DNA of 64,000 nt from an uncultured Anaerolineales bacterium (GCA_964651255.1 CAZYWU010000007.1:7817-71816); one strand, 5' to 3'. Positions 3,857 through 53,050 are shown, numbered from the stretch's first letter. Notes: generated by a model from the letters alone, not told the origin. Made by a program: numbers and translations.

Positions 3857-3901
3857 TATACGCCTCCCTGACGGTCGTTCTCGTCCCTTTTCTCCGTTCC
3901 A

Positions 3902-4822
3902 TCACAGGACCTGGGAACCGCCCCCCGCAGCCCGCTGCGTCCTGGGAACGATGAGCTGCACCGCTCCAGAGATCACACGGGCAGTGACGGGCGTGCAGCC
4001 GATCAAATCCCCATCGGCCTGAACGTCCAGCGGCTCGCGGCACGTGATCGTAACCTCATCATGAACGTCCAGGACCTGAATGTGCCGGCGCGTCCGGCGG
4101 CGACCGAGCAGCAGCTCCCAGGCTACATGCAAATAGTCGCGCACATCCCGGGCGCGAAAGGCGACAACCTGTAGAACGCCGTCCGCAGGATGGATGCTGG
4201 TCGAGGCGCGCAGATCGGGCAGGCCCATCGACGGGCAGTTGGCCACCAGAACCTCCGTGGCGCGCAGACGCATCTCCTCACCGTCAAGAGTGAGGTCGAT
4301 GTCCTTGACGCCTGCTGCGAATAGATTCCTGGCGCCCGCCCACACATACGCCAGCATGCCAAAGCGCTGCTTGTCCTCGGAGGCCGTGTCGCGGATAATC
4401 CCGGCACTCAGTCCGATGCTCAAGTTCAGAAACGCATAGGCGTCGCCCACCTGAATGGCGTCGAGGGCGAGGGTAGCATGCTCTCCAGCGATCAGACCCA
4501 GCGCATCCTCTAGCCGGCTAGGCAGACCCGTATCATGTGCGAGCACATTGGCGGTCCCCTCCGGAAGGATGCCCAGCTCGACGCCGGTCCCCACCAGATT
4601 TGCTGCGACGACACGCACGGTGCCATCGCCACCGGCGGCAACCACCGCGTCCACCCCCGCCGCCACATGCTCCTGGATCACCGGGCCAACATCGCGGCCC
4701 TCCTCGAGCAGGTACAGCTCATAGCTCCATGGATCGATCAGCCGGCGCGCCAGGGCTCCGCGCAACTGATCGATATTGGCACTGCCCGACCTGGGGTTCG
4801 CAACAACGAAGGCTTTCGGCAT
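3902..4822 (-). CDS. YegS/BmrU-type lipid kinase (diacylglycerol kinase catalytic domain family)
   Basis: Start is placed at MPKAFVV (an AGGAAG RBS precedes it), not at the upstream M of the track ORF. GGDGT motif (AAGGDGTVRVVA) and the DAGK_cat fold signature are present. Confidence 0.75.
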   Translation of the reverse strand: MPKAFVVANPRSGSANIDQLRGALARRLIDPWSYELYLLEEGRDVGPVIQEHVAAGVDAVVAAGGDGTVRVVAANLVGTGVELGILPEGTANVLAHDTGLPSRLEDALGLIAGEHATLALDAIQVGDAYAFLNLSIGLSAGIIRDTASEDKQRFGMLAYVWAGARNLFAAGVKDIDLTLDGEEMRLRATEVLVANCPSMGLPDLRASTSIHPADGVLQVVAFRARDVRDYLHVAWELLLGRRRTRRHIQVLDVHDEVTITCREPLDVQADGDLIGCTPVTARVISGAVQLIVPRTQRAAGGGSQVL

Positions 4823-11277: not shown

Positions 11278-12459
11278 TCAGGCTTTGATCACCACACAGG
11301 GAGACTGGTTCACCACCTCATCATTCAAGGCAATGCCCAGCCCGGGCTCTTCGGGCACCACAAAGACACCCCGCTCCGGCTGCAGGTTCGGCGTGCAGAG
11401 GGCGATGTTATCCGCCTTGAGCGCGCGGGTGTGATGCTCGTGGATGCCAAAGTTCGGGATGGCCGCCTCGAGGTGCAGGGCCGCGGCGGTAGCCACTGGA
11501 CTGCCGCACACGTGCACTTGCACCAGGATGTCGTAGACATGGGCATAATCGCAGATCTTTTTGCCCTCAGAGATGCCGCCCACCAGGCCCAGATCGGGCT
11601 GGATCAGGCTCAGGGTCTGCTGCTCAAAGTAGGGACGGTAGCCCCAGCGCGTGTAGATGCGCTCGCCGGCCGCCGTAGGGATCGACACACTGTGTGCCAC
11701 CAACTCGTGCAGGGCGGGGTTCACATAGTGCACAGGCTCCTCGTACAGGATGCACTCAAAGGGCTCCCACAGCCTGCCGAGCTGAATGGCGTTGCTCGTA
11801 GTGAGATGCGAGTGCGCCTCAATGATGATATCGACGTCCGGCCCCACTGCCTCCCGGATGGCGCCCACCCGGTCGCGGTAGCAACGCAGCTGGGCGGCAG
11901 AGAACAACCCCCGTAACATCCGTGTGTCCGTCTCGCCTTGCGGTCCGAACATGATCGGATCGACCTTGACACAATCGTATCCCTCTTCGACCGCTTTGAG
12001 CGCGGCCTCCGCATACTCCTCCGGTTGCACCAACTTCTCAGTCTCCGGACCCCAGCCGAACTGAATCTGGCTGGCATAAGTACGCAGGCGTTCGTTTGTC
12101 TTTCCGCCCAGCAACTGGTACACCGGCACGCCCAGCGCCTTGCCCTTGATGTCCCACATCGCTGTGTCGATGGCGCTCATGCCGCCATACACCACGGGGC
12201 CGCCGCCACGCCCCCAAAAGCTCGCGCGGAACATGGTGTCCCACAACAACTCGCTCTGGAACGGGTCGGCACCCAGCACAAACTGCTCGGCCAGATTGCG
12301 CGCCATGCCGATGCCGGCGCTATGGCCCGTGCCGTAGGCCAGCCCCACCTCGCCCAGTCCCGTGATACCGTCGTCGGTCGTGGCCCGCAGGATCACCGGA
12401 TGCCACGCTGGGGCGCTCTCCATGTGGATATCGAAAACCTCAACCTGTACGACCTTCAT
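11278..12459 (-). CDS. Enolase-superfamily sugar-acid dehydratase, D-mannonate/D-galactonate dehydratase-like subgroup
   Basis: Start is at MKVVQVEV with a GGAGG RBS. The motif order (GITGLGE ... FWGRGGGPV ... AMWDIKGKALGVPVYQLLGG) parallels ManD. The track ORF extends upstream with an implausible Arg/Trp-rich leader. Confidence 0.8.
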   Translation of the reverse strand: MKVVQVEVFDIHMESAPAWHPVILRATTDDGITGLGEVGLAYGTGHSAGIGMARNLAEQFVLGADPFQSELLWDTMFRASFWGRGGGPVVYGGMSAIDTAMWDIKGKALGVPVYQLLGGKTNERLRTYASQIQFGWGPETEKLVQPEEYAEAALKAVEEGYDCVKVDPIMFGPQGETDTRMLRGLFSAAQLRCYRDRVGAIREAVGPDVDIIIEAHSHLTTSNAIQLGRLWEPFECILYEEPVHYVNPALHELVAHSVSIPTAAGERIYTRWGYRPYFEQQTLSLIQPDLGLVGGISEGKKICDYAHVYDILVQVHVCGSPVATAAALHLEAAIPNFGIHEHHTRALKADNIALCTPNLQPERGVFVVPEEPGLGIALNDEVVNQSPCVVIKA

Positions 12460-12520
12460 TTGTCCCTCCAGTTTCCTTTTGTCACCTGCCCAGTCGCAGC
12501 CATCCGCGCCGCGCCCCGGG

Positions 12521-14857
12521 TCACGCAACGAGGACACGCCGCAGCGCGGCATGGTCCAACTCTTCAGCCACACGCAACCAGACCTCGCGCGCGCCAGGAT
12601 AGCCGAGGTCCGGCTCAAAGCCCAGATCCAGATACAGGCGAATGGCCCCCAGCCGATACGATTGGGTGCCGAGGTAGGCGCGCGTGTGCCAGCGGGCCAG
12701 CTGGTGCAGCGTATAGGCCAGCGCCGCGCGTGCCAGCCCCAGCCGGCGATACGCCGGGCGGATGGCGACCCAGTGCACCTGCCCCCACGATTCCCCCTGC
12801 GCATCCTCGCGGATCCAGGCGGAGATGGTGCCGACAGCCACGCCGCGCGGTCCCGTCACCAGGTAGCAGCGCCAACCGATAGCCGGCAGGTTGCTGCCAA
12901 ACACGCGCTCGAAAAGTCCGTCCTCGATGGCAAAGTAGGGCTCGGCATCGCGCCAGATATCCGCCCACAGCCCGCCCTCGTCCGGCTGCATGGGGCGGAT
13001 GCCATACCCCTCGGGGAAGGGCACATCAGGAATATCTGTGAGATCGCGACGGATCATATGGAGCACGTCTCCAGCAGCATTCCGCTCAGGTCCCGGTGGG
13101 AGCGGAGGCGGCAGACCTTGCCTGGCGCGAAACAGCCTTCTCACCGTGGCCAGGGCCCGCTTGGGCCGGCGGTCACGGGTTACCACGCCGTATGGGCTCA
13201 GCGCCAGGCCGTGGCAGAAGGATAATACGTTTGCCGGCCAGGAATGATCGGCCCAGCACCACATGGTAGCGCCACAGACATACGGGGCATCCATGCCGGC
13301 CAATTCCGCTTCTATCGCCCGGGCCTGCCAGTCTTCGCCCAGAGCACTCTCCCGGCTGCCCTCCAGCGCCGCGTAGCCGAACTCGGTCACCAGGATGGCC
13401 TTGTCCGGGTGGCGGGCGTGCAGTTCGGCCAGTCCATCACGCCACCAGACCGTCGACTCTGCCAGGTCGTAGCCGGAATCCCCGGCCAGCCCGCGCCGAT
13501 CCAGCGTGGGATAACCATTGACGCAGAGCACATCGTCCTCTTCGAAATGGGGCTGATCGCGCCAGTGGTTGCTCACGTGGACCGCCAGCCGGGTCGGATC
13601 TGCCTCGCGAGCCACGCGGATCAGGTGGGCGTTGCCCGCTGCCACCTCTGGCCGCTGCTCCTCCGTCTCATTACTGACCGACCAGACGATCAGGGCGGGG
13701 TGATGGCGGTCGCGCTCGATCATGGCCCTGAGCTGGCGTTCCGCAGCCTCCAGTTTCGCTTCGGGCATGCCCGCGCCCTCGGCCTCGCCGCGCCACCAGT
13801 AGAGCGGGATCTCGCCCATCGCCAGCAAGCCCAGCTCATCGCACAAATCCAGTTCGTCCGGGTGGTGCGGGTAGTGGCACAGACGCACGAAATTGGCGCC
13901 CGCATCACGCATGCTGCGCAGATCGCGACGCACTGTGTCGCGATCCTCAGCCATGGCCACCGTTGGCGCGTCCTCGTGGCGGTTGAACCCGGTGAGCACC
14001 AGCGGCTCACTGTTCAGCAGCAGCCTGCCTTCTTGCGCCGCTATGCTGCGAAAGCCCGTGCGCCGACTGATGCTGTCGACGACCGCTCCGTCGCAGAGCA
14101 GTGACGCCTCGACCGTGTACAACACCGGCGCGACAGGCGACCAGAGGGTGACGCCCGGCACCTGGCTGCGGAGCACGCAGGGGGCCGCCTTGCCAGGAGC
14201 AAGGCACATGTCCCCGCTCTCTACACAGGCCAGCTCGTGGCCCTCCCCATCGAGCACGCGCACGCGCAAACATGCATCGGCCGATTGCGAGCGCGCGTTG
14301 GCCAGCGTAGCGCAAGCCGTCAGCGTACCGCCCCGCTTGGCCGGCAGCGCATCCAGCGCCACATCCTTGATGTATAGCCGGTCCGTCGCGACCAACTCGA
14401 CTCGCCGCTGCAGCCCGCCACAGGTCCGCCAGCCCCGCTCCAGGCCGGGCACGTCCCCGGCCCGCCGGATGTTGTCCGTGCACACCGCCAGGGTCGTCGG
14501 GCCGTCCCAGTTGACGTGATCGGTTATGTCGACCTCAAAGCCCAGGAACCCATCGGGATGGGTTCCGGCGAGCCGGCCATCGACCCACACCTGCGCGTGG
14601 TAATGCACCCCGTGAAACCGCAGGACGATGCGACGCCCCTGCCACTCTGAGGGGATGTCCAGCCCCCGCCGGTACCAGCCGGCTCCCTCATAGTCCGCCA
14701 GCGCAGGCACCGCCACATCCCAACAGGAGGGCACCCACACCTCGCGCCAGTGCTCGTCTGTGCACAGCGGACTGGCAAAGCCCAGGGTCTCGCCCTCGCC
14801 GGTCGGATCAGGCTGAAAGCGCCACACGCCTGTCAGATCGATGCTCTCTCTCAACAC
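12521..14857 (-). CDS. GH2 glycoside hydrolase (beta-galactosidase/beta-mannosidase/beta-glucuronidase family) with a fused C-terminal GNAT N-acetyltransferase domain
   Basis: N-terminal sugar-binding and Ig-like domains. TIM barrel with acid/base WSVSNETEE and nucleophile ILVTEFGY. The C-terminal ~170 aa carry GNAT motif A (RRLGLARAALAYTL) in the same ORF. Confidence 0.8.
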   Translation of the reverse strand: MLRESIDLTGVWRFQPDPTGEGETLGFASPLCTDEHWREVWVPSCWDVAVPALADYEGAGWYRRGLDIPSEWQGRRIVLRFHGVHYHAQVWVDGRLAGTHPDGFLGFEVDITDHVNWDGPTTLAVCTDNIRRAGDVPGLERGWRTCGGLQRRVELVATDRLYIKDVALDALPAKRGGTLTACATLANARSQSADACLRVRVLDGEGHELACVESGDMCLAPGKAAPCVLRSQVPGVTLWSPVAPVLYTVEASLLCDGAVVDSISRRTGFRSIAAQEGRLLLNSEPLVLTGFNRHEDAPTVAMAEDRDTVRRDLRSMRDAGANFVRLCHYPHHPDELDLCDELGLLAMGEIPLYWWRGEAEGAGMPEAKLEAAERQLRAMIERDRHHPALIVWSVSNETEEQRPEVAAGNAHLIRVAREADPTRLAVHVSNHWRDQPHFEEDDVLCVNGYPTLDRRGLAGDSGYDLAESTVWWRDGLAELHARHPDKAILVTEFGYAALEGSRESALGEDWQARAIEAELAGMDAPYVCGATMWCWADHSWPANVLSFCHGLALSPYGVVTRDRRPKRALATVRRLFRARQGLPPPLPPGPERNAAGDVLHMIRRDLTDIPDVPFPEGYGIRPMQPDEGGLWADIWRDAEPYFAIEDGLFERVFGSNLPAIGWRCYLVTGPRGVAVGTISAWIREDAQGESWGQVHWVAIRPAYRRLGLARAALAYTLHQLARWHTRAYLGTQSYRLGAIRLYLDLGFEPDLGYPGAREVWLRVAEELDHAALRRVLVA

Positions 14858-40489: not shown

Positions 40490-40989
40490 TCTCCTGGTGA
40501 CAAGTTGACACTGGCAACCTGGTCAGATTGCCTCATCTCTGGCAGCGGACATTATGACCCGGCCATCGCGTATATGTCAACAAAGCCGAACCTGCGGTTT
40601 GCATCCGAATCCCCGCCATCGATGCTGATGCCCGTACACTCACGGGGGACATCCAGTGCTCTGGCGCGAGGATGATACGATGAGTCATGGCGTTCGCCTG
40701 CAATTTCGTGAAGGCAGCCGCCTTGACGGCCCTGCGGTTGTGCTCGGCCAGAGCGTGACCGATAGCAGCGCGTGCTGACCAAAGCTGGCTCCGATCCTGG
40801 CCGAGCGCTAATCGCGTCGTCGCCTATGATGCACACAATCATCGCGGCTCAGAGTTCGTCGATCAGGTCTGTGGCTGCGATACGTTCGGAGACAAAATCC
40901 GGCGGAAGCAGTTCACGGCCTGCCCGGCGCCCGTGCCGGGCTTTCGCACAGTTTGATCAGCCCTGCGCCCCGATGGTGCGGGCTTGCCC

Positions 40990-41892
40990 TCAGCGACGGC
41001 GCGCCCGCGCCACATCGCCCTCATCCGCGCCTTTGAGCGTCGAGGGGCCGTAGCGCCGCAGGAGCAGCAGCGCCACCAGCCAGGAAGCGAGGCCCAGCAC
41101 CATCTGCGACAGGGAGGGCCAGCTCAAAAACGTGGTGGCCACGGTCCATAGCGTGAATGCCATGGCGACATAGAGCATACATATCCACAGGCTTGCGGTA
41201 TTGTTATAGAGCCAGGTCAGGATCACCGACGCGCCCACCAGATAGATGCCCCAACCGATCAGGTGCAGGGGCAGCGTCGTGCCCACTGAGGTACCGATGT
41301 ACAGCGCCAGCAGATAGGGCAGCATCCACAGAATCCACATGATGGCCACGAGGTAGGAGGATTGTTCTGCCGTGGTGCGCCGCTGCGCGAGCGCCAGCGC
41401 GGTCCCCCGCCATCCGAACTCTCCTGTGGCCAGCGTCACCAGATTAAAGAGCAGGAGCAGCGGGATCAGCCCCGGCCTGGCCCCCGCTGAGGCAGCCTCG
41501 CCACCAGTCACCAGGCCGATGACCATCGCCGGAAGCATGATCGCGACAGGAAGTACGAGGGCGATAGCATACCAGCGCCCTTGCAGACGCCAGTGCCCCA
41601 TCCGCCCCCACAGGGTGCGCACCCCCTGCGCGCCCCCCAGGCGCGCGCTGATGCCCAGCCCACTCAGGAGAGGCCCGTAGGAGCCCAGCAGGAACAGCAC
41701 CAGCACCACGACATGGACGTTGTCCACGGGAGTCACGCCGCCGCTGAGCAACCGCGCTCCGGTGAGGGGCACATACCCGGCCCGCCCCGCCAGCAGCAGA
41801 GCGGGAAGCCAGGCCGCCCAGGAGATGAAACATGCCTGGATCGTATAGGCCCAGGCCGCCGAAATTCGCTTGCCACCGCTTCTGCGCAACAT
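40990..41892 (-). CDS. Polytopic membrane protein, possibly CPBP (CAAX protease/Abi) family intramembrane metalloprotease
   Basis: About 8 TM segments. GEFGWRG resembles CPBP motif 1 (EExxxR) and LPLHLIGW resembles motif 2. The assignment is tentative. Confidence 0.5.
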   Translation of the reverse strand: MLRRSGGKRISAAWAYTIQACFISWAAWLPALLLAGRAGYVPLTGARLLSGGVTPVDNVHVVVLVLFLLGSYGPLLSGLGISARLGGAQGVRTLWGRMGHWRLQGRWYAIALVLPVAIMLPAMVIGLVTGGEAASAGARPGLIPLLLLFNLVTLATGEFGWRGTALALAQRRTTAEQSSYLVAIMWILWMLPYLLALYIGTSVGTTLPLHLIGWGIYLVGASVILTWLYNNTASLWICMLYVAMAFTLWTVATTFLSWPSLSQMVLGLASWLVALLLLRRYGPSTLKGADEGDVARARRR

Positions 41893-41919: not shown

Positions 41920-42855
41920 CTACTGCTGCCACCGGGCACAGCGCACAGGCTCTCCGCAATCGAGGTCCCGATGACATCGATCGCAGTGCGCACAGGGCGC
42001 CGGATCCAGTCCTGCTCGGATGCGCTCCGGCCAGAAGGGATCGGCGATCAGCCCGCGGCCCACCGCGACCAGATCGGCCCGTCCCTCGCGCAACACCTCA
42101 ACAGCCCTGGAAACGTCATCGAGGCCATTGACCGCAATCACGGGCACCCCGAGGATACGGAAGGGTGCCGACCGATCGCCAGGCGCCTCGATAGAAGAGG
42201 GAGAGAGATCCAGGATGTCCACGCCGGCGTCGACCAGCGCCCGAGCCAGCGTCAGGCTCTCCTCGATGCCATATCCGGGACCCACCGGCGTATGCCGGTA
42301 CAGGAGCAGCCGGTCATCCGGCAGCACGGCCCGGATCGCCCGCACAATCTGGACAGCCAATAACATCCGGCCGTTCAACGTGGCCCCATACGCGTCCGTG
42401 CGCGTATTCTGCGTGGCTGAGAAGAACTGGTTCAGCAAAAAGCCGTGGGCGCCATGCACCTCCACACCATCGAAACCCGCTTCGGCGCAGATCCGGGCAG
42501 CCTCGGCATAGTCGCCGATCAATGCGTCTATGGCGGCCCGGTCCATCTCACCGGGCGTGACGTGCTGGCCCCTGGTGCCGGGGAAAAGCTGGATCGCCGC
42601 CAGGGCGCCGGCCTCCTGAATAGCAGTAGCCAGCGGACGCAGCCCATCGGCGGTATAGCGGTTCGCAAAGCCTGCCACGCCGGTGGCCTCTACGATCACC
42701 AAACCCACACCGCCGCGGGCGTGCTCGCCGTACCAGGCGATCGCCTCCGGCGTGTCAATGCCGCGATTGACCACCATCGGCGGCATGACGATGCGGTTGG
42801 GCAGGCAGCGCCCACGCACCTCCAGCGGCTCAAACAGCAGCGCGATTTCGGACAT
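41920..42855 (-). CDS. Old Yellow Enzyme-family NADH:flavin oxidoreductase (FMN TIM barrel) with a C-terminal Cys cluster (CxxCxxCx5C), FadH-N-terminal-like
   Basis: FEPLEVRGRCLPNRIVMPPM N-terminus. The HGAHGFLLNQF active-site block. C-terminal CAHCDRCHRDLDCGEPVRC. Confidence 0.8.
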   Translation of the reverse strand: MSEIALLFEPLEVRGRCLPNRIVMPPMVVNRGIDTPEAIAWYGEHARGGVGLVIVEATGVAGFANRYTADGLRPLATAIQEAGALAAIQLFPGTRGQHVTPGEMDRAAIDALIGDYAEAARICAEAGFDGVEVHGAHGFLLNQFFSATQNTRTDAYGATLNGRMLLAVQIVRAIRAVLPDDRLLLYRHTPVGPGYGIEESLTLARALVDAGVDILDLSPSSIEAPGDRSAPFRILGVPVIAVNGLDDVSRAVEVLREGRADLVAVGRGLIADPFWPERIRAGLDPAPCAHCDRCHRDLDCGEPVRCARWQQ

Positions 42856-42891
42856 AGATGGCGTCCCCTCTCACCCGCAGAATCGCCCGGC

Positions 42892-44241
42892 CTAGATAGA
42901 GCTCAGCAGCACCCGTGCCGCAGTCTGCACCGGGTCCCAGACCGGGGAGAAAGGCGGCGCATAGGCCAGATCCATGTCCACCAGGTCCTGCACCGTGAGT
43001 CGCGCGGTCAGGCAAGCCGCCACGGCATCGATACGCTTGCCAGAGCCGGGGCCGCCGACAATCTGCGCCCCAAGCATGCGCCCGCTGCCCTTTTCAGCAC
43101 ACAGCTTGACCCTGATCTGCGCCGCGCCAGGATAATACCCGGCCCGGGTGCGGTCCTCGATCGTGGTGCAGGCATAGTCGATGCCCAGCGCCTGAGAATC
43201 GCGCTCGCGCAGACCCGTGCGGGCGATCTCTGTATCACCCACTTTGGTAATGGCCGTCCCGACCACCCCGGGGAAGGTCGCCTGCCCACCGGTCAGGTTC
43301 AGCCCGGCGACGCGGCCCATTTTGTTGGCCACCGTGCCCAGCGGCGCCCAAACCGGCCGCCCGCTGACGCGATCGACCGTCTCAGCACAATCGCCGGCGG
43401 CCCACACATGCGGGATCGTCGTGCGCATCCTCTCATCGACCCGGATCGCGCCATGAACGCCCAGCGGCACGCCCGCCCTGGCCGCCAACTCGCTCACCGG
43501 CTGCGCGCCGGTGCCAAAGACCACCAGATCCGCGGCTAGCGTCTGGTTGCTGAGCACCACGCCGGTCACGTGACCGTCCGAATCTACCAGCGCCCGCGGA
43601 CTCTCGTTCAAGTAGAGCATGACGCCGATATCCCGCAGCGCCTGCGTCGCCAGGGCGCCCATATCGGGGTCCAGCGTCGACATGACCTCCGCCCGACGGT
43701 GCACCAGCGCGGTGTCGATGCCGCGCAGGCGCAGCGCCTCCGCCACCTCCAGCCCGATATAGCCGCCACCGATGACCACGGCCTGTTGAGGAGCACGCTC
43801 GTTGATCGACTCCCACAAAGCGATGCCGCTGGCCAGGCCCCGCAAAGCGAACACGCCCGCGGCATCCGTGCCGGGGATGTTGGGGAACACCTCGCGAGCG
43901 CCGGTGGCGATCAGCAACTCGTCGTACGGCTGGACAAACGCGTCGCCCCCGCGCGCAGCCACTGTGACCTCTCGGGCCTCAGTGTCGATGGCAGTGACCT
44001 CGTGCCCGGTGAACACCTGAATGTTTTGCCGCGCAAATTGCTCGGGGCGGCGCGCGATCAACCGCTCGGGCCCGCTCACCTGCCCGCCCACCAGGTAGGG
44101 CATACCGCAGGCGGCGTAGGAGATGTGCTCCCCGCGCTCATAGACGATAATCTCGAGATCGGCGTCCCGACGGCGCGCCTGCGATGCGGCGCTCATACCC
44201 GCCGCATCGCCGCCGATCACCACCAGCCTGCGTGCCGCCAC
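42892..44241 (-). CDS. FAD-dependent pyridine nucleotide-disulfide oxidoreductase, CoA-disulfide reductase / NADH oxidase (Nox) subfamily
   Basis: GGDAAGMSAA FAD motif, redox Cys in SYAACGMPY, a second Rossmann (VIGGGYIGLE) and the dimerisation domain. Confidence 0.85.
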   Translation of the reverse strand: MAARRLVVIGGDAAGMSAASQARRRDADLEIIVYERGEHISYAACGMPYLVGGQVSGPERLIARRPEQFARQNIQVFTGHEVTAIDTEAREVTVAARGGDAFVQPYDELLIATGAREVFPNIPGTDAAGVFALRGLASGIALWESINERAPQQAVVIGGGYIGLEVAEALRLRGIDTALVHRRAEVMSTLDPDMGALATQALRDIGVMLYLNESPRALVDSDGHVTGVVLSNQTLAADLVVFGTGAQPVSELAARAGVPLGVHGAIRVDERMRTTIPHVWAAGDCAETVDRVSGRPVWAPLGTVANKMGRVAGLNLTGGQATFPGVVGTAITKVGDTEIARTGLRERDSQALGIDYACTTIEDRTRAGYYPGAAQIRVKLCAEKGSGRMLGAQIVGGPGSGKRIDAVAACLTARLTVQDLVDMDLAYAPPFSPVWDPVQTAARVLLSSI

Positions 44242-45506
44242 TACTGGATGTACCCCAGATACTGGCTCTGGCGTTCCAAAATCGTATCGAGCATCGCCTC
44301 TGCCGCCGCAACCTTGTCCACATTGAGGTCGGCCAACAGCGCCTGCATAACCACCTTCCTTGAGCCGGTCAGCACCGCCTCCGCGGTCAGTTCGTGGATG
44401 GCCACCTGGTTCTGCAACAGCCCCAGGAACCCGGCGGGGATCCTGGGCAACGGCGTGCCGTGCACACCGCTGCCGTCGATAGTGCCGGGCACCTCGACCG
44501 CGATATCGTTTGGCAGCCCGTCGATCAGCCCACGGTTGGGCAGGTTGAGTGCGGCCTCATGGGCCAGCTCGCCCGAGACCATCGCCTCAATGATGGGGAT
44601 CACGCGCTCGCCCTCCTGGAACTGGTCCAGACTGAGCACCGCCGCTGGCGCACGCCCATGGGCATACTCTTTGTAGTGGGCGTAAAAGTCGAGGATGCCC
44701 TTGTGATCGACCACATCGTGCGCCCACTGCAGGTACTCGCCCAGGTGGCTGTCGGTAGTAATGGGCAGCAGGTCATAACGCCGCAACAACTCCATGAACA
44801 GGCCGCGCTCGACACTCCCCTGAAAGTATTCGGGGGCCGCGGCACGGATATCCGGATAGGCGTCCTCGCCGGTATCTTTGTAGCGCGCCTCCAGCAGCAT
44901 GGAAAAGTGGTTCAAGCCGCCAGCCACCAGCTCCAGGTCCTCGATGGGGCGTCCCAGGATGCCGGGCAGGTGCCGGCCCAACGAGGCGATCTCATGGCAC
45001 AGGCCCACCAGATGCAGATCCGGGTACTTGTGGTGCACGGTGGTGCAGATGCGGCTCATGGGATTGGAAAAGTTGATCACCCAGGCGTCGGGGCAGAGCC
45101 GCATGACGTCGTCGCAGATCGCCAGGATCGGCGGGATGATCCGCAGGGAGTGAAACAGCCCGCCGGGGCCGCCATTCTCCCCATAGACCTGACGAAAACC
45201 ATACTGCTGCGGAATCCTCCAGTCCTGTTCCCAGAGCTCGAACCGGTCACCGACCTCAATCGAGATGATGATATAGTCGGCGCCCTTGAGGGCCGTCTCC
45301 CGGTCCGGCGTCGCCTCGATCGTGTAGGGCAGCCTGTGCTCCTTGACATGCGCCAGGCCGACCTCGTGCACCCGGGCCAGAGCCGTCGGATTGATGTCAT
45401 GCAGCACCACCGTGCTACCCTCCAGCACCTTGCTGCGAAAGACATCCGCCAGCGTGCCAAGGCCAAATTGCGCGCTCCCCGCCCCTACCAGAACCACACG
45501 AGCCAT
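44241..45506 (-). CDS. GH4 family glycoside hydrolase (NAD+/Mn2+-dependent alpha-glucosidase / alpha-galactosidase / 6-phospho-glycosidase type)
   Basis: N-terminal Rossmann VVLVGAGSAQFG, the GH4 Cys/His metal-site block (NFSNP...GLCHE), about 420 aa. Its stop overlaps the start of the downstream oxidoreductase. Confidence 0.85.
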   Translation of the reverse strand: MARVVLVGAGSAQFGLGTLADVFRSKVLEGSTVVLHDINPTALARVHEVGLAHVKEHRLPYTIEATPDRETALKGADYIIISIEVGDRFELWEQDWRIPQQYGFRQVYGENGGPGGLFHSLRIIPPILAICDDVMRLCPDAWVINFSNPMSRICTTVHHKYPDLHLVGLCHEIASLGRHLPGILGRPIEDLELVAGGLNHFSMLLEARYKDTGEDAYPDIRAAAPEYFQGSVERGLFMELLRRYDLLPITTDSHLGEYLQWAHDVVDHKGILDFYAHYKEYAHGRAPAAVLSLDQFQEGERVIPIIEAMVSGELAHEAALNLPNRGLIDGLPNDIAVEVPGTIDGSGVHGTPLPRIPAGFLGLLQNQVAIHELTAEAVLTGSRKVVMQALLADLNVDKVAAAEAMLDTILERQSQYLGYIQ

Positions 45507-45536
45507 GTCACACCTCCTTTGTCAATGACAACTTTG

Positions 45537-46658
45537 CTAGTCCCAGTATGCCTGCGGCGCGTCCTCCAGGACGGCCAGCGCTGCCCGTTGGCGGGCCATC
45601 CGGCTGCGCACTGCCCGATACAGCCCCTCGGTCGTCTCGTCGATATCCAGCAGGCTGTTAGTGTATGGATCTGCCTTGGTCGCGGCGTTGACCTGGGCGA
45701 TCCACTCTGGTTCCAGATCGCCCGCGCCCGAAAGCGCCCCGGCGAGCCCCGCTGCCACCGCCGCCAGGCAGTCGGTGTCGCGGCCAAAGTTGACCGCGGC
45801 GATCATGGCTGGACGAAGTTGTCCACCTGTGGCAGCCACGATGGCCAGTCCCTTGGCGACCACCTCGTTGGCCTGCGACTGGCCGTAGACGATATAGTTG
45901 CCGCCCGAATAGTAGGCGTTCAGCTCGTCCCACATACCCATAGGATCGCCGGGATGGCCGGCCGCAATCTCCAGCGCCCGCTCGACTTCGCGCTCGACAC
46001 GGTCATAGCCGCCATAGGGCGTATTCTTTTGCGAACGGTAGGCCGCGAACTCGCGCGCGGTGTCAAGCACCGACTCGATCGTGGCGTTCGGGCTGAGCGC
46101 GGCCGCCAGCGCCGCGTCATAGAGTGCGGCCCAGCGCAGCGCAAAAGTTGTCTCGTTCGCATAGACCAGGCCCACATCATAGACATCTGCCGCCGCTGCC
46201 GCGGGGTCCCCAGCGTTGATAATCCCCAGTGTGTGGCTGGCGCGCGCCATGGAGACGACGTTGTTGAACGGCCAGAGGCGCCCCAGCTCGCGCGGGGGCA
46301 CACCGGCACGCGCCATCTCGAGCAAGCTCTTGTCAAAGGGCTCCTGCTTGTACCGCATCCGGTCAGGATCAAGCACGTCCACCCAGACGGTCACAAAGTC
46401 GTCCGCGGTGATGCGGTCCTGCTTGCGAATGACGGCCAGGTTCATCAGTTTCTGCCGCTCGATGCCATCCTCGGTGGTGCCAGGCAACCGCTGCCAGTCG
46501 GTGTACGAGGTATAGTGCTTGTAGGATCGCAGTTCCTGCAAGGTGCCATAGGTTTGCTGGATGCGCTCGCGCGACCAGCCCTCGACCGCCGCGCCCATGG
46601 CCGAGCCGACCCACGAGCCGGCGATACATCCGCGTATCTTGTCCTTCAAAGTGAGCAT
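45537..46658 (-). CDS. ADP-ribosylglycohydrolase family protein (ARH/DraG fold)
   Basis: CIAGSWVGSAMGAAVEG N-terminal signature and the C-terminal dimetal Asp/Thr block (NFGRDTDCLAAVAAGLAGA). Confidence 0.85.
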   Translation of the reverse strand: MLTLKDKIRGCIAGSWVGSAMGAAVEGWSRERIQQTYGTLQELRSYKHYTSYTDWQRLPGTTEDGIERQKLMNLAVIRKQDRITADDFVTVWVDVLDPDRMRYKQEPFDKSLLEMARAGVPPRELGRLWPFNNVVSMARASHTLGIINAGDPAAAAADVYDVGLVYANETTFALRWAALYDAALAAALSPNATIESVLDTAREFAAYRSQKNTPYGGYDRVEREVERALEIAAGHPGDPMGMWDELNAYYSGGNYIVYGQSQANEVVAKGLAIVAATGGQLRPAMIAAVNFGRDTDCLAAVAAGLAGALSGAGDLEPEWIAQVNAATKADPYTNSLLDIDETTEGLYRAVRSRMARQRAALAVLEDAPQAYWD

Positions 46659-46736
46659 CTGTATCTCCTCTCCACGCTCAGACTGTCCACGCGGAGTATA
46701 CCCGATACCGCCCGCGCCGGCACGCTACCTCAGCGG

Positions 46737-47705
46737 CTAGCTGACGCGAATCCCCAGCGTCAGGTCGAGACGGTTACGCAGCGGCTCGCCCCGCACATAG
46801 CGGCCGAGGTTCTCCTCAAAGATCGCCAGGGCACGCTCGTCATAGGCGGGAGTGCTGCCCGAATAGTGCCCAGTAATGAGGACATTGTCCAGGTCCCAGA
46901 GGGGCGAGTCGGCGGGCAGGGGCTCGGGGTCCGTGACGTCTAGCCCGGCGCCCGCGATCTGACCGCTGCGTAGCGCCTCGATCAGTGCCTCCTGATCGAT
47001 GGTGCCGCCACGACCGATGTTGTATATGGTAGCAGTGGGCTTCATCAGGGCAAGCTGCCTGGCGCCGATAAGGTGCTGCGTCTCAGGCGTCAAAGGCACG
47101 GTCAGCACGACGAGATCGGCCTCCGGCAGCACGGCATCCAGCTCCGCTGGACTTACCATGCGTTCGATGCCGCGCACCTGTCGCTCCGGGTCGCGCCGCA
47201 CCCCGATCACGTGCATCTCCAGGGCGGCCGCCAGACGCGCTGTGCGCTGGCCGATGGCGCCCACACCGATCAGCAGCAGCGTCTTGCCCGCCAGCTCGAA
47301 CACGGGATGCGACCAGCCGCCCCGCAGCCACTCATGCCGGTCCTGAGCCCGTACCGCATCGGGAATCTGCCGCGCCAGCGCCAGCATCATGGCCAGCAGG
47401 TGCTCGCTGATCGGCACAGCATGGACCCCAGACGCATTGGTGACCACAAGATCGCGTTCACGGATCTCGGGATGCTCTATGATCCATTCGGCACCCGCGC
47501 CCCATTGCTGGTACCAGCGCAGATGCGGCATCGCCAGCACCGTCTCAAGCGCGATGTGTCCTGAAACGACCTCAATATCCGCCATCGCCGCGGCAATGGC
47601 GTCAACATCGCGGGTCACCAGCAGGTCGTAGCCGGTCGCCAGCAAGCGCAGCCGCTCCGCTGTCTCCGGGGCAAGATGATCCATGGCTAACAATACTGTG
47701 GGCAT
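46737..47705 (-). CDS. D-isomer-specific 2-hydroxyacid dehydrogenase family protein (second copy)
   Basis: Start is at MPTVLLAM with a GGAGGTG RBS. GxGxxG LIGVGAIGQRTA. Catalytic His in ITGHYSG. Confidence 0.8.
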   Translation of the reverse strand: MPTVLLAMDHLAPETAERLRLLATGYDLLVTRDVDAIAAAMADIEVVSGHIALETVLAMPHLRWYQQWGAGAEWIIEHPEIRERDLVVTNASGVHAVPISEHLLAMMLALARQIPDAVRAQDRHEWLRGGWSHPVFELAGKTLLLIGVGAIGQRTARLAAALEMHVIGVRRDPERQVRGIERMVSPAELDAVLPEADLVVLTVPLTPETQHLIGARQLALMKPTATIYNIGRGGTIDQEALIEALRSGQIAGAGLDVTDPEPLPADSPLWDLDNVLITGHYSGSTPAYDERALAIFEENLGRYVRGEPLRNRLDLTLGIRVS

Positions 47706-47803
47706 ACGCACCTCCGAATTCCCTTGGGCCAGCCTTTGCTGCCAGAGACGAGCACCGGCAGGAGGCTGTTCCTGCCGGTGGATGGAACGAGACAAACCGT
47801 GAA

Positions 47804-48229
47804 TCAGGCCAGATAAGCCATTTGCTTGGCGTCAGGCGTGTACTGGTGCAGCTCGATGCGGTTGCCATCGGGATCCGCCAGCCAGGCCTGGTAAGCGCCG
47901 TCGCCGCCGAGCTTGACCTCGCCCACCTCGACGCCACGCTCGCGCAGCACCGACACAGTGCGATGAATGTCCTCAACTTCGAGGCAGATATGGCGGTAGG
48001 ACTGGCCCTCGGCGGGCTCGCTCAGGGTGCCCACGAAGAGCTCGATAAAATTGCGCCCGCCGGCGTAAATGTACTGGCCGTGCCAGGTCCCATCGGGACG
48101 GCGGAACTCGAACGCTTTGGTCATGCCGAGCTGGCCGCAGTAAAAGTCCACCGAGGCCTGCAGGTCGGAGACGGTAAAGCAGACGTGCGCGAGGCAGGAG
48201 ACGATCTTGGCGTCGGACTGTTCGCTCAT
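47804..48229 (-). CDS. VOC-family protein (glyoxalase / bleomycin-resistance / dioxygenase fold)
   Basis: HVCFTVSDLQASVDFY beta-alpha-beta-beta-beta module repeated twice. 141 aa. Confidence 0.8.
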   Translation of the reverse strand: MSEQSDAKIVSCLAHVCFTVSDLQASVDFYCGQLGMTKAFEFRRPDGTWHGQYIYAGGRNFIELFVGTLSEPAEGQSYRHICLEVEDIHRTVSVLRERGVEVGEVKLGGDGAYQAWLADPDGNRIELHQYTPDAKQMAYLA

Positions 48230-48405
48230 GGTTGGGTTCCTTTCACTGGCAGTATGCGTACGATCTCACAGGCGTGCTGATTATATCACCCCCTGTCGGA
48301 GCCCGCGACAAAGCTCGCGCCCGTGGTTGGCAGCCGACCGCCGCCAGTGTATCCTTGGCGAAACGTCAGATCAGTAGCTCGAAACTGCCAGCAAAGGAGT
48401 GCCCC

Positions 48406-49635
48406 GTGACTGCAGAACCCAGGCCGCTCGAACAATACCGCGCCGATGACGGGCGTGGCCTCAAAATCCGCTGCGTCGAACCATTCTCCCTGCATGTGCC
48501 CACCCGGCCCTTTTCCACCGTGTGGACTTTTTGCCGCATCACTACCGAGGAGGGACTCGTGGGCCTCGGCGAGGGCATCGGCACCCCCGGCCCGGTGTGC
48601 GCCGCCATCCAGTACTTTGGCAACTCGCTGGTGGGTCAGTCCGCCTGGGACATAGAGCGGCTCTGGGTGGGCATGTACCGCGCCGCAGAGTTCAGCCGCA
48701 GCGGTGTGAACCAGGCCGCCATCAGCGCCATCGACATCGCGCTGTGGGACCTGGTGGGACAAAAGACCGGCCTGCCCGTCTATGCCCTGCTCGGCGGCAA
48801 GGTCAACGACCGCGTGCCGATCTACCACCACCCCTGGGATGAGGTAGGCGATGAGTCGGCCTTTGCCGAGGGGCGCCTGCGGCAGGGCTATGTGGAGGCG
48901 ACCCGGGACCTGGTGGCGCAGGGGATCATCGCCGGCAAGCTGGACCCCTTCCCGCGCGAGCCGGGCTATAACCGGGAGATCTCGCCCTTTGCACTGCGCT
49001 ATGCCACCGACATCATCCGACAGATACGCGAGGGCGGCGGCCCGGATTACAGGATCTGTGTCGAAATGCACGCGCGCTTTAATGTCGGCTCGGCACTACG
49101 CATCGCGCAGGCCCTGGAGCCCTACGATCCCTTCTGGATTGAGGAACCCGTGGCACCCGAGAGCCTGGCCGAGACGCGCGAGGTGCAGCGCGCCACCCCG
49201 CTGGCGGTGGCCACCGGGGAGCGCCTTTACCAGCGCATCGATTTTCGCGATGCGTTCGAGCAGCGCTGCTGCCGTATCATCCAACCCGACATCGCCCACG
49301 TAGGCGGCATCACCGAGATGAAAAAGATCGGCGCCCTGGCCGACGCCTACTATGTCACGGTGGCCCCTCACGAGTGGAACGGCCCGGTGACGCTGCTCGC
49401 GGGTGCGCATGTGGGCGCGACGCTGTCCAACCTGCTCATGTGCGAGTACCACATACAGCTCAAGGGCGTGCTCGAAGACACCATGCCAGATGGTTATCGC
49501 TATGATCCGCAGTATATTGACCTGCCCGAGACACCGGGCATCGGCGTGGCCTTTTCTGAGGCTTACATCCGCGAGCACCGTGTCGACCCGGATGCTTACG
49601 GGCGCACGGGCTATGTGGGGCACATCCGCTTCTAG
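48406..49635 (+). CDS. Mandelate racemase/muconate-lactonizing-enzyme family protein (enolase superfamily), third copy
   Basis: GTG start after an AAGGAG RBS (the track ORF extends upstream). AISAIDIALWDLVGQKTGLPVYALLGG capping/barrel junction. Metal ligands in VEMHARF / IEEP / QPD. Confidence 0.8.
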   Translation: MTAEPRPLEQYRADDGRGLKIRCVEPFSLHVPTRPFSTVWTFCRITTEEGLVGLGEGIGTPGPVCAAIQYFGNSLVGQSAWDIERLWVGMYRAAEFSRSGVNQAAISAIDIALWDLVGQKTGLPVYALLGGKVNDRVPIYHHPWDEVGDESAFAEGRLRQGYVEATRDLVAQGIIAGKLDPFPREPGYNREISPFALRYATDIIRQIREGGGPDYRICVEMHARFNVGSALRIAQALEPYDPFWIEEPVAPESLAETREVQRATPLAVATGERLYQRIDFRDAFEQRCCRIIQPDIAHVGGITEMKKIGALADAYYVTVAPHEWNGPVTLLAGAHVGATLSNLLMCEYHIQLKGVLEDTMPDGYRYDPQYIDLPETPGIGVAFSEAYIREHRVDPDAYGRTGYVGHIRF

Positions 49636-49728
49636 CCGGGAACGCACTTGACGGTCGCTGGCAAGATTAACGGCCAGGTACGCACAGTACAGCTATCAGA
49701 ACAAATATACAGACAGTAGGAGAGCGCC

Positions 49729-50997
49729 ATGCGCGTTGACTTGAAATACGGCAAGACGGGGCTGCAGGTCACCCTCCCCGATGACGCCACCGTGATTTAC
49801 CCCAAAGAGATGCCCGGGCTGCCAGACGAACAGGCGGCGCTGCGCGCTGCGCTGGCGATGCCGATCGGCATGCCCCCGCTCTCGCGCGTCGTCCAGCCTC
49901 GAGATCGTGTGGCGATAGTATTCAGCGACATCACCCGTCCCATGCCCTCCGACCGCGTGCTGCCAGTGCTGCTGCAGGCATTGGACGGCCTCGTCCCCCG
50001 CGAGCAGATCCTGCTGATCAACGGCACGGGGACGCACATGGCCAACACCCGCGAGGAATTGATCGGAATGCTGGGCCAGAAGATCGTGGACAACTATCGC
50101 GTCGTGAACCACGATGCCTGGGACAATGACAATCTGTTGGATCTGGGTATGACGCCGCAGGGCCATCGTGTGCTGGTGAACAAGGCCTTCTACCAGGCCG
50201 ATTTCAAGATCCTGACAGGCTTTATCGAGCCGCACATCTTTGCCGGGTTCAGCGGCGGGCCCAAGGCGGTGCTGCCGGCCGTGGCCGGTATCGACAGCAT
50301 CATGGATAATCATGGCTTTGCGATGCTGAACGATCCTCGTGCCACCTGGGGCCGCCTCGAGGGCAACCCGGTTTGGCAAGAGATGCGGGCTTTCGCCACA
50401 ATGGCCAAACCCGACATGATTCTTAATGTGACGCTCAACCGCCTGGGTCAGATCACAGGCGTTTTCGCCGGCCAGATGGACCTGGCCCACGCCCAGGGAG
50501 CGGCACAGGTGCGCGAGCACGCCATGGTGCCCGTGGACGGCCATTTCGATGTGGTGCTGACCACCAACAGCGGCTATCCGCTGGACATTAACCTGTACCA
50601 GACCGTCAAGGGGCTCTCGGCGGCCGCACAGGTGGTGAAACCTGGCGGAAGTATCATCGTGGCCAGCGAGTGTCGCGGCGGTATCCCCGACTATGGCGAG
50701 TACCGCAACCTGGTGGTGGAGGGCGGCTCGGCCGAGGGGATCCTCAAGCTGGTCGGCGCGCCTGGGTTCCGGCGGCACGACCAGTGGGAGGCGCAGTTGC
50801 ACGCCTTTATCATGCAGGCTGCACAAGTCTTTGTATACAGCGACGGCCTGAGCGACGACCAGGTGCGCGAGATGCTGTTTACGCCCGTTCACGATATCGA
50901 GGCCACGGTGACGCGCGAACTGGAACGACACGGGCCAGGCGCCCGCCTGCTGGTGATCCCCGAGGGGTCTCAGAGCATCCCCTACATCGCGTCTTGA
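49729..50997 (+). CDS. LarA-family protein (nickel-pincer-nucleotide-dependent lactate racemase / 2-hydroxyacid racemase-epimerase homolog)
   Basis: N-terminal DUF2088 pattern (VIYPKEMPGL...RDRVAIVFSDITRP) and the LarA C-terminal domain. About 420 aa. Confidence 0.8.
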   Translation: MRVDLKYGKTGLQVTLPDDATVIYPKEMPGLPDEQAALRAALAMPIGMPPLSRVVQPRDRVAIVFSDITRPMPSDRVLPVLLQALDGLVPREQILLINGTGTHMANTREELIGMLGQKIVDNYRVVNHDAWDNDNLLDLGMTPQGHRVLVNKAFYQADFKILTGFIEPHIFAGFSGGPKAVLPAVAGIDSIMDNHGFAMLNDPRATWGRLEGNPVWQEMRAFATMAKPDMILNVTLNRLGQITGVFAGQMDLAHAQGAAQVREHAMVPVDGHFDVVLTTNSGYPLDINLYQTVKGLSAAAQVVKPGGSIIVASECRGGIPDYGEYRNLVVEGGSAEGILKLVGAPGFRRHDQWEAQLHAFIMQAAQVFVYSDGLSDDQVREMLFTPVHDIEATVTRELERHGPGARLLVIPEGSQSIPYIAS

Positions 50998-51010
50998 GCA
51001 AAGGAGCATC

Positions 51011-53050
51011 ATGACCAGATCACTTGCCCGAATCCTGCCCCCGCCGCAGCAGATCAGCCCTGCGGAGGGCTGCTTTCGCCTGGACGCACGGACCCGCATC
51101 CTGATTGTTCCCGAGAGTGGACCCGAAGCGTTCGCCGCGGCGAGCAGCCTGCGGGCCGAGATCAAGACGACAACGGGGCTGCGGCTGCAGATTCTCCGGA
51201 CAGCCCGGCCGCCGCGCCGCGAGAATGTCATCCTGCTCTGCGACGACCCCGGGGCCGCGGCAGAGTACCTGGGCATCCCCTTCCCCTCGGAGGGGAGCGC
51301 CGGACACGGCGAGCAGGCCTATACCGTTTCGATCTCGCCCGAGCGCGTGCTGGCCGGCGGTGAGGGCGCCGTCGCGCTGCATTATGCCGTCCAGACGCTG
51401 CGACAGATCGTGCGGCTGCAGGGCACCATCTGGAGCGCGTGCCAGATCGAAGACTGGCCGGTGCTGGCTTACCGGGGCGTGATGCTGGATATCTCGCGCG
51501 GCAAGGTGCCCACGCTGGATACACTCAAGGCCATCGTGGATTTCTGCGCCCTGTTCAAGATGAATGTGCTGCAGCTCTACACAGAGCACACCTTTGATTT
51601 CGCCAGCCACCCGCAGATCGGGCTGGGATCCGATCCCCTCACCAGCGAGGACATTCTCACGCTGGATGCCTATGCCCGCGAGCGGCATGTGGAGCTGATG
51701 CCTAACCTGAACTGCTTTGGCCATTGCGCCCACCTGCTCAGCCTGCCCGAGTTCGCCCACCTGGCCGAGTCCGCGGTGCCCTGGACGCTCACGCCGGTAG
51801 ACGAAGGCACCTACACCCTCCTGGGCGACATGCTGGACGACATGCTGCCCGCCTTTTCCTCGCGCGTGTTCAACGCCGGCTGCGATGAGACTTGGGACCT
51901 GGGCAAGGGCCGCTCGGCAGCGCTGGCAGCGGAGATCGGCGTAGGGCGCGTGTATTTGCAGCACCTGCAGCGTCTGCATGCCATGGCGCGCGAGCGCGGC
52001 TATCGCATCCAGTTCTGGGGCGACATCCTGCTGCACCACCCCGAGCTAGTCCCTGAGCTGCCCGAAGACGTCACCCTGTTGGACTGGCACTATGAGGCGC
52101 AGGACGATTACCCCTCGTTGAACATCTTTGCCGAGAGCGGGCGGCCCTTCTGGGTGTGCCCGGGCACCTCGTCCTGGAATACACTGTTCCCGCGCCTCGA
52201 GAACGCCAACGGCAACATCCGCACCCTGGCCCGCCTGGGGGCCGAGCGCGGCGCGGAGGGTCTGCTCAATACCGACTGGGGCGATCACGGGCACTATCAG
52301 CCGCTAGGGCAATCCTGGTACGGCTATGCCTATGGCGCCGTGCAGGCCTGGACAGGAGGCGCCACCGAGGACGCCGACTTTGATCCGCGTTTCGGACGCA
52401 TCTGGTTCGGTAGCCGTGGGGAAGAGATCGTCGAGGCGATACGCGCGCTCGGCCGGCTGAACACGCTTGAGGGCATGCCCCGGCCCAACAGCAGCAACAG
52501 CATCACCATGCTGCTGGAGGAGCCGCTGGCAGGCGAGCTCGCCGATGTCGTTCCGGGTGAGACGCTCGATGAGATCGCCAGAGTCACGGCCGAGGCGGAG
52601 GCCATCTTTCGCGCCGCCTGGGGACATAGCCGTGATCGGATCGCACTGGAGGAGATGATCAACTCGGCGCAGTGGATGGCCTATGCCGCCAAAAAGGTGC
52701 GAGCTACGGCCGCGATCCGCACATCACTGGCTGGCGCCGAGGACCGCCGCGCCGTTGCGGCCGCTGGCGTGCCAGGTTTGCGAGAGATGGAGCGCGCCCT
52801 CGCCCCGCTGCAGGCCGAGTTTGTGCGCCTCTGGCGCCGGCGCGCACGGGAATCCGAGATCGGCCAGCATCTGGGTGCGCTGGCCGCCCTGCGCGAGCGC
52901 TTTGCCCTGGCGCAAGCATGGCTGGGCACCATCGCGGCCGGCGAACGAGACGAACTCGATATTGATGCCTATCTGGCGTCGACACCGCGCTATGAGATCC
53001 TGGGGCAGCATTTCTGGCGGCTGATGCGCGAGGTCAACGACAGCCTGTAG
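51011..53050 (+). CDS. GH20 family beta-N-acetylhexosaminidase-like protein
   Basis: AYRGVMLDISRGKVPTL TIM-barrel start and an H/N-x-G-x-DE catalytic-pair region (FNAGCDETWDLG). The C-terminal ~200 aa are helical and unassigned. Confidence 0.8.
   Translation: MTRSLARILPPPQQISPAEGCFRLDARTRILIVPESGPEAFAAASSLRAEIKTTTGLRLQILRTARPPRRENVILLCDDPGAAAEYLGIPFPSEGSAGHGEQAYTVSISPERVLAGGEGAVALHYAVQTLRQIVRLQGTIWSACQIEDWPVLAYRGVMLDISRGKVPTLDTLKAIVDFCALFKMNVLQLYTEHTFDFASHPQIGLGSDPLTSEDILTLDAYARERHVELMPNLNCFGHCAHLLSLPEFAHLAESAVPWTLTPVDEGTYTLLGDMLDDMLPAFSSRVFNAGCDETWDLGKGRSAALAAEIGVGRVYLQHLQRLHAMARERGYRIQFWGDILLHHPELVPELPEDVTLLDWHYEAQDDYPSLNIFAESGRPFWVCPGTSSWNTLFPRLENANGNIRTLARLGAERGAEGLLNTDWGDHGHYQPLGQSWYGYAYGAVQAWTGGATEDADFDPRFGRIWFGSRGEEIVEAIRALGRLNTLEGMPRPNSSNSITMLLEEPLAGELADVVPGETLDEIARVTAEAEAIFRAAWGHSRDRIALEEMINSAQWMAYAAKKVRATAAIRTSLAGAEDRRAVAAAGVPGLREMERALAPLQAEFVRLWRRRARESEIGQHLGALAALRERFALAQAWLGTIAAGERDELDIDAYLASTPRYEILGQHFWRLMREVNDSL

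Follow-up and report, generated by a model that had tools for sequence, protein, structure and literature searches.

Glycosidases of family GH4 require NAD+, Mn2+ and reducing conditions, and their mechanism runs via an enone intermediate; enzymes of the CoADR/Nox/Npx group use a single cysteine to reduce disulfides, O2 or peroxide; and in Escherichia coli the Old Yellow Enzyme (OYE) gene nemA is co-transcribed with the glyoxalase gene gloA, in electrophile defence. Here we describe a block of five genes in a 64,000-nt stretch of DNA from an uncultured Anaerolineales bacterium (GCA_964651255.1, CAZYWU010000007.1:7817-71816; this whole stretch is hereafter called the window), in which the gene of an ADP-ribosylglycohydrolase (ARH)-fold protein is followed by those of a GH4 glycosidase, a CoADR/Nox-type flavoprotein, a short OYE and a CPBP-like membrane protein. 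An initial annotation had read the first four as an operon for a redox-supported glycoside or unsaturated-sugar pathway, with the flavoprotein maintaining GH4 activity. Our own, tentative preference is for a co-transcribed and lineage-restricted mosaic, which would combine a cytoplasmic GH4 enzyme of the non-phosphorylated-substrate type with an NAD(P)H-driven redox module, any benefit to GH4 being protective; a dedicated redox-assisted sugar pathway is possible. The literature searched contained nothing relevant on the cluster, on an association of ARH with GH4 or of GH4 with OYE, or on ARH as a new glycoside hydrolase family or in Anaerolineae.

Layout and conservation of the block

An open reading frame (ORF) check, together with Pfam and NCBIfam searches, confirmed all four initially annotated minus-strand genes with their coordinates, their domain identities and the overlap between the GH4 stop and the CoADR start. 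Co-transcription is likely, given gaps of -1 to 36 nt, while the count of four needs correction, as the unit has five genes with that of the CPBP-like protein:

45537..46658, minus strand: ARH-fold protein, 373 aa, the variable first gene of the block
44241..45506, minus strand: GH4 glycosidase, predicted to be of the NAD+/Mn2+ type, 421 aa (PF02056 and PF11975)
42892..44241, minus strand: single-Cys flavoprotein of the CoADR/Nox family, 449 aa, GTG start
41920..42855, minus strand: short OYE, 311 aa (PF00724)
40990..41892, minus strand: CPBP/Rce1-like polytopic membrane protein, 300 aa, the fifth gene

The spacing is 30 nt from ARH to GH4, -1 from GH4 to CoADR, 36 nt from CoADR to OYE and 27 nt from OYE to CPBP, the overlap consisting of TAGTG at 44241, where one G is common to the GH4 stop TAG and the CoADR start GTG. 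Shine-Dalgarno-like sequences lie 5' of ARH (GGAGAGGAG), GH4 (AAGGAGGTG) and OYE (GAGAGGGGA). With homologues numbering in the hundreds to thousands for each gene, and orthologues that are 60-98% identical, the ORFs are real genes and not chance ones; homologues carrying names come almost all from Anaerolineae/Chloroflexota metagenome-assembled genomes. Judged by the common strand, the short gaps and an order kept in nine genomes, the five genes probably form one transcript; no promoter-like site was found inside the block in a consensus scan, and a consensus terminator scan gave one weak match within it, inside the CoADR coding sequence, the others being likewise weak and in-gene.

Conservation was followed in three anchored surveys. 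The ARH alignment (A1), searched against one genome per GTDB species, gave 80 loci, on which the window proteins were placed by tblastn, and further instances of the block came from look-ups of single homologues. The full order ARH-GH4-CoADR-OYE-CPBP is present in the window (L001) and in L007, L008, L010, L168, L175 and L176, and L173 has GH4-CoADR-OYE-CPBP with ARH absent from the block. The closest relative, L006 (ARH 98% identical), also keeps the full order, but of its CoADR only residues 1-66 and 319-449 are left, encoded in different frames, a remnant at 3893-4586 of that locus beside intact GH4 and OYE genes; the fragments could be a pseudogene, or else a co-assembly collapse or assembly artefact. 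In L166 and L012 an ARH at 80% identity is followed by genes for an enolase-superfamily dehydratase (MR_MLE), glycerate kinase (MOFRL), enolase and a thiamine pyrophosphate enzyme, with no block. ARH, which is missing from the block in one genome and occurs without it in these two, is the least stable member, and the arrangement as a whole is confined to one Anaerolineae clade of about nine genomes.

Within this clade both flanks of the block vary. Upstream are found a glyoxalase/2-hydroxyacid dehydrogenase (Glyox/2-HADH) pair, a 5-kb gene of a giant GLUG/BACON protein, a HEAT/fucose isomerase combination or an ABC2 membrane protein; downstream are HEAT, ASD1, the DNA polymerase III alpha subunit, abhydrolase/MR_MLE or abhydrolase/Fe-ADH. 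In every block genome the order from GH4 through CoADR and OYE to CPBP is unbroken, the CPBP gene being always 3' of OYE, and it has outlived considerable divergence, with orthologues down to 61-69% identity for the enzymes and to 41% for CPBP. CoADR-OYE-CPBP is the tightest sub-unit, with gaps of at most 110 nt, and between GH4 and CoADR the distance is anything from -1 to 317 nt, two genomes having 200-317 nt.

Outside the clade, the GH4 alignment (A2) was scanned against metagenome contigs and gave 80 loci with relatives at 52-66% identity, for which up to 10 kb on each side was examined where the contig allowed, many contigs being only 2-6 kb long. Within the DNA examined, a homologue of ARH, CoADR or OYE was found near none of these 80 GH4 relatives. 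Their recurrent neighbours are ABC sugar-transport components, and five proteobacterial-looking loci, with GH4 relatives at 52-54% identity, share the order LysR-substrate-binding protein-permease-permease-GH4-MalK-GH13. Similarly, about 70 ARH loci outside the clade, which span Armatimonadota, Planctomycetota, Spirochaetota, Bacillota and archaea, have no other block gene as a neighbour, two of them having only a distant GH4 (27-32% identity); recurrent there are enolase-superfamily proteins, Gfo/Idh/MocA and SDR oxidoreductases, sulfatases, FAD_oxidored, LacI, aldo-keto reductases and PCC/DUF296. Nor do other block genes lie beside OYE relatives at 61-64% identity in four loci. These surveys, without co-occurrence outside the clade, indicate a clade-specific invention kept within the clade, and not an arrangement general to any of the four enzyme families. 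The initial annotation had made its operon depend on co-occurrence in related genomes: the genes do co-occur in close orthologues and never in distant ones, where the proposal fails on its own terms, and the notion that CoADR sustains GH4, or that there is a redox-supported unsaturated-sugar pathway, has comparative support in one clade only.

The neighbourhood could also be incidental, i.e., due to shared descent, in one Anaerolineae family, of genes that serve unrelated ends, namely a housekeeping CoADR, a general OYE and a sugar hydrolase, with no selection for linkage. We find this on balance doubtful, although the restriction to one clade, the independent contexts of each member elsewhere, the coming and going of ARH and the absence of a regulator or transporter from the block all agree with it. 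Against incidental adjacency, the block has persisted while its flanks were rearranged: breakpoints fall at both of its boundaries in at least four lineages, and the order from GH4 to CPBP is never broken, even where CPBP has diverged most. Overlapping or very short gaps in several genomes (the window, L175 and L006) also speak against it.

The block proteins

GH4 matches PF02056 (1.4e-42, 145.8 bits against a cutoff of 23.2) and PF11975 (5e-35, 121.8 bits against 24.1). G8-A-G-S11, C170-H171 and H200 are invariant in 27 homologues, as are the motifs GxGS, ENGGPGG, NPM, GLCHE and GLNHF, and the NAD+ motif and the Cys/His Mn2+ ligands align with their equivalents in solved GH4s. The protein is roughly equidistant from all solved GH4 structures, with 26% identity to E. 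coli MelA, and scores below the cutoffs of the MelA-type model (NF011657, PRK15076; 268.2 bits against 486) and of the AglA alpha-glucosidase model (NF041089; 124 bits against 650). Its CHE motif groups with non-phosphorylated-substrate enzymes (LplD, CCHEV) and not with phospho-sugar enzymes (CNVP, CDMP), suggesting an uncharacterised subfamily of the former type. Of the substrate classes that the initial annotation proposed to distinguish, the non-phospho one could thus be read, from signature residues that split only non-phospho from phospho enzymes and do not separate alpha-glucosidase, alpha-galactosidase and uronidase. In several metagenome assemblies the GH4 gene and the genes around it recur unchanged. 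For the GH4 homologue P0013, each of the five independent assemblies shown (L180-L184) breaks off some 100-220 nt 5' of the gene, in four cases at 203-218 nt, which suggests a repeat or mobile element there.

CoADR matches Pyr_redox_2, Pyr_redox and Pyr_redox_dim (2.3e-61). Like the CoADR/Nox/Npx group, it combines domains for FAD, NAD(P)H and dimerisation with one redox Cys, and it aligns over its full length with the closest structure, 6ruz (an 'NADH oxidase' of 443 aa, 6.6e-108), and with CoADR structures; archaeal and bacterial CoADRs and persulfide reductases follow 6ruz among the structural matches. Cys45, in SYAACGMPY, is invariant in nine orthologues. The score stays below the CoA-disulfide reductase equivalog thresholds, both for TIGR03385, the best NCBIfam match (437.6 bits against 578.8), and for PRK09564/NF007123 (424.6 bits against 458).

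OYE belongs to PF00724 (Oxidored_FMN; 5.3e-46, 157.9 bits against a cutoff of 27), and its histidine pair H134/H137 (HGAHG) is invariant in the family alignment. The initially proposed iron-sulfur motif CxxCxxCx5C is present as letters (C288, C291, C294, C300), but C300 is unique to this protein and absent from the other aligned family members, and the fourth cysteine is C306: C288, C291, C294 and C306 are conserved in 25 of the 26 short-OYE family members, as CxxCxx(x)Cx11C. In hhalign, OYE aligns with residues 3-356 of E. coli FadH at a probability of 99.9, including all four cluster cysteines, which in FadH form the motif C-x2-C-x3-C-x11-C (CigCnqaC...C). Because these four cysteines coincide, the likeness to the N-terminal half of FadH, already put forward in the initial annotation, is better founded than the earlier motif implied. 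The closest structures are thermophilic-like OYEs, with FadH (1ps9) also matching, and OYE falls far below the cutoffs of the BilR, BaiCD and NamA equivalogs. The C-terminal FAD and NADPH domains of FadH (672 aa) are absent, OYE ending at residue 311, and an external reductant would be needed for that reason. By alignment, the protein would be an FMN TIM barrel with a C-terminal, predicted [4Fe-4S] Cys4 motif of the FadH type and no reductase domains.

A source of electrons would be offered by a split FadH-like pathway, in which the CoADR-like flavoprotein would pass electrons to the [4Fe-4S]/FMN OYE for reduction of an activated C=C bond in a product of GH4, ARH or both; such a product might be an unsaturated aglycone or a sugar enone of the 2-ene-3-ulose type. 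This reading comes close to the pathway of the initial annotation, and we consider it unlikely. It is consistent with the four cluster cysteines in a protein lacking the FadH reductase domains, with the classical His pair that binds enone carbonyls and with the enone of the established GH4 mechanism, although GH4 enzymes normally retain that enone and do not release it. A Pyr_redox_2 flavoprotein is encoded immediately upstream of OYE in all nine block genomes, and the block outlasts flank rearrangements; on the other hand, short OYEs of this Fe-S family occur widely in loci that have no such neighbour, two genomes have the long gap between GH4 and CoADR, and in L006 CoADR is fragmented while OYE is intact. 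A precedent for split and fused forms exists in the superfamily, where short BilR works with a separate BilS and long BilR has fused flavodoxin-like and NADP(H) domains (PMC10769871). The flavoprotein of the block, however, keeps Cys45 and the dimerisation domain and is nearest to NADH oxidase and CoADRs, not to ferredoxin or rubredoxin reductases. The combined proposal of a two-component, split FadH-like ene-reductase acting on a GH4- or ARH-derived sugar enone, with ARH as a new-family glycosidase and not an ADP-ribosyl hydrolase, seems to us very improbable; if true, it would amount to an undescribed two-component ene-reductase and to a non-hydrolytic, reductive branch of GH4-type glycoside cleavage.

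CPBP is a marginal match to PF02517 (26.2 bits against a cutoff of 22.4). Conservation of the CPBP protease motifs EExxxR, FxxxH and HxxxN is limited to E158 and R162; Tyr229 stands in place of the motif-2 His, and at the position of the motif-3 His the window protein has Val and its orthologues vary. With the canonical histidines lost, CPBP is probably not a protease.

ARH matches PF03747 (ADP_ribosyl_GH; 1.1e-29, 104.4 bits against a cutoff of 26.2), and its AlphaFold2 model (pLDDT 89.6) finds MJ1187, DraG and ARH3 as top Foldseek matches, with TM-scores of 0.6-0.78, 12-18% identity and a probability of 1.00. Alignment A1 shows no variation at the acidic di-metal ligands E26, D64, D294 and D296, nor at C297 within the motif N[FY]GRDTDC; this Cys takes the place of the metal-binding Thr in DraG (T246) and ARH3 (T317), which suggests altered metal chemistry. 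The score lies far below the DraG (29.3 bits against 337) and Tri1 (24 bits against 490) equivalog cutoffs for ADP-ribosyl-arginine hydrolases. The protein belongs to a divergent subfamily among the di-metal hydrolases that resemble ADP-ribosylglycohydrolases, and the genes with which it chiefly associates are sugar-acid ones (for an enolase-superfamily dehydratase, a 2-hydroxyacid dehydrogenase and a glycerate kinase). Distant relatives found in an exhaustive profile search (P0384, P0413, P0406, P0412 and P0361) are fused to Calx-beta and BT_3987-like N domains or to leucine-rich repeats (EndoS-like), or are tandem ARH-ARH proteins; fusion partners of this kind are typical of surface glycan-active proteins and hint at extracellular glycan-related roles. 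These contexts and surface-domain fusions fit the initial suggestion that ARH acts on glycosyl conjugates and not on protein ADP-ribose.

Further observations concern ARH homologues. A PCC/DUF296 protein of about 156 aa is encoded directly beside them in eight loci (L027, L042, L055, L063, L064, L071, L072 and L076) of unrelated bacterial and archaeal lineages, a pairing of wider conservation than ARH-GH4. MR_MLE genes adjoin ARH homologues in seven loci besides the window. In L176, a 497-aa fusion of protein-tyrosine-phosphatase-like domains and an ARH domain is encoded at 11557-13050, 3.6 kb downstream of the block, and in L010 (5241-9839) and L012 (6782-9829) the gene of a giant secreted GLUG/BACON/M26-like protein lies between the 2-hydroxyacid dehydrogenase and ARH genes.

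Ends of the unit and flanking genes

Three further features of the window bear on the limits of the unit:

47804..48229, minus strand: VOC/glyoxalase, with Pfam and NCBIfam matches, upstream of ARH
46737..47795, minus strand: D-2-hydroxyacid dehydrogenase, with Pfam and NCBIfam matches, upstream of ARH
40551..40580, minus strand: sigma-70-like promoter TTGACA-18-CATAAT, 11/12 consensus positions, a consensus match only

The unit most likely ends after the CPBP gene, because a 500-nt gap follows it and holds the region's only strong sigma-70-like site, just before a HEAT-repeat gene; this site is most likely the start of the next transcription unit, that of the HEAT-repeat gene. A GC hairpin at 40941-40922 was rejected as a terminator after CPBP, as it folds no better than shuffled sequences (z = -0.11), and Rfam gave no RNA element between 38 and 52 kb (E<=0.1).

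On the other side, the Glyox/2-HADH stretch lies 78 nt upstream of ARH. It adjoins ARH only in the window, L006, L007, L008 and L166 and is separated or absent in L010, L012, L168, L173 and L176; its two genes may be co-transcribed context genes, outside the conserved block. Directly upstream of Glyox-2HADH-ARH, a divergent trio at 48232-53050 (plus strand) encodes an MR_MLE enolase-superfamily protein, a LarA-like protein of the lactate racemase family and a GH20 hexosaminidase-like protein. Elsewhere in the window, at 12521-14857 (minus strand), a 778-aa protein joins GH2 domains to a C-terminal GNAT acetyltransferase domain, an unusual fusion.

An 849-aa antisense ORF at 44394-46943 (plus strand), over ARH and GH4, was rejected as an artefact of high G+C (about 64% as computed for this DNA); its G+C content at third codon positions is 0.68, against 0.77-0.83 for neighbouring block genes, a comparison made with block genes other than ARH and GH4. 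Greedy ORF calling picks antisense ORFs in high-GC DNA, and such ORFs were disregarded throughout, including clusters 1 and 9 of the ARH-neighbour survey.

Function of the block and comparison with known systems

As a mosaic, the block would work as follows. GH4 most likely hydrolyses an imported, non-phosphorylated glycoside by NAD+/Mn2+-dependent oxidation-elimination, CoADR/Nox, OYE and CPBP most likely form an NAD(P)H-driven module at the membrane for the reduction of thiols, oxygen and electrophiles, and ARH would be an enzyme of the di-metal glycohydrolase fold tied to sugar-acid genes. Coupling between GH4 and the redox module, should it exist, would most likely be protective: it would keep the thiol pool reduced along with the oxidation-sensitive Cys/Mn/NAD site, probably with no dedicated chemical step.

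Several points weigh against this account. All 80 GH4 loci outside the clade lack a neighbouring reductase, and therefore a specific protective need is not evident; the fragmentation of CoADR beside intact neighbours in L006 is a further point, though it could be an assembly artefact. That the block has outlasted rearrangements at its flanks speaks for some selective linkage, not expected of a mosaic that is purely incidental, and the predicted Fe-S cluster of OYE implies a dedicated electron donor, which suits a pathway or two-component reading better. Sequence assigns no substrate to GH4 or ARH, and co-transcription, substrates and the protective role are what we infer from the observed gene identities, architecture and pattern of conservation.

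As a lineage-specific arrangement of enzymes from well-known superfamilies, the cluster changes no current picture: all the block proteins are new and uncharacterised members of superfamilies already known, and the cluster itself is taxonomically narrow and its function inferential. Its significance would be greater only if a link between the ene-reductase and GH4 chemistry were demonstrated. It does point to three large, never-characterised protein subfamilies, namely a GH4 clade that abounds in Chloroflexota and Proteobacteria and shares about 26% identity with any enzyme studied, a widespread group of 311-320-aa OYEs with the FadH Fe-S motif and without reductase domains, and an ARH-fold clade with Cys in the metal site and glycan or sugar-acid contexts.

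Compared with described enzymes, GH4 shares both Pfam domains, GxGS and the Cys/His Mn2+ ligands with the alpha-galactosidase MelA, the Thermotoga maritima alpha-glucosidase AglA and the Bacillus subtilis alpha-galacturonidase LplD. Its GLCHE resembles GCCHEV of LplD and differs from GLCNVP and ICDMP of phospho-sugar enzymes, whereas its distance from MelA and its scores under both NCBIfam cutoffs set it apart from MelA and AglA; its relatives elsewhere occur in ABC-transporter/GH13 loci and, in contrast to the block, not beside redox genes. CoADR has the same three-domain architecture, with a single Cys in SxxxCGxPY, as 6ruz, 4fx9, 3kd9, 1yqz and 3nta (E-values of 1e-108 to 1e-59), and differs from CoA-disulfide reductase and H2O-forming Nox in its sub-cutoff scores and in having no rhodanese domain. 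OYE keeps the classical HGAHG pair where FadH has MGSEGY, and is barrel-only like short BilR, so that a separate electron donor would be required in both cases. ARH shares the all-helical fold and the acidic di-metal ligands of DraG, ARH1/ARH3, Tri1 and MJ1187, and differs from them in its 12-18% identity to solved members, its Cys for Thr, its sugar-acid and glycan contexts and the surface-glycan-type domains of its distant relatives. Finally, while a NemR-type regulator is absent here and the glyoxalase gene lies four genes away, outside the conserved block, the stretch from the glyoxalase gene to OYE may be likened to E. coli nemRA-gloA, both bringing together an OYE and a VOC/glyoxalase on a transcript-sized stretch with putative thiol-linked redox functions.

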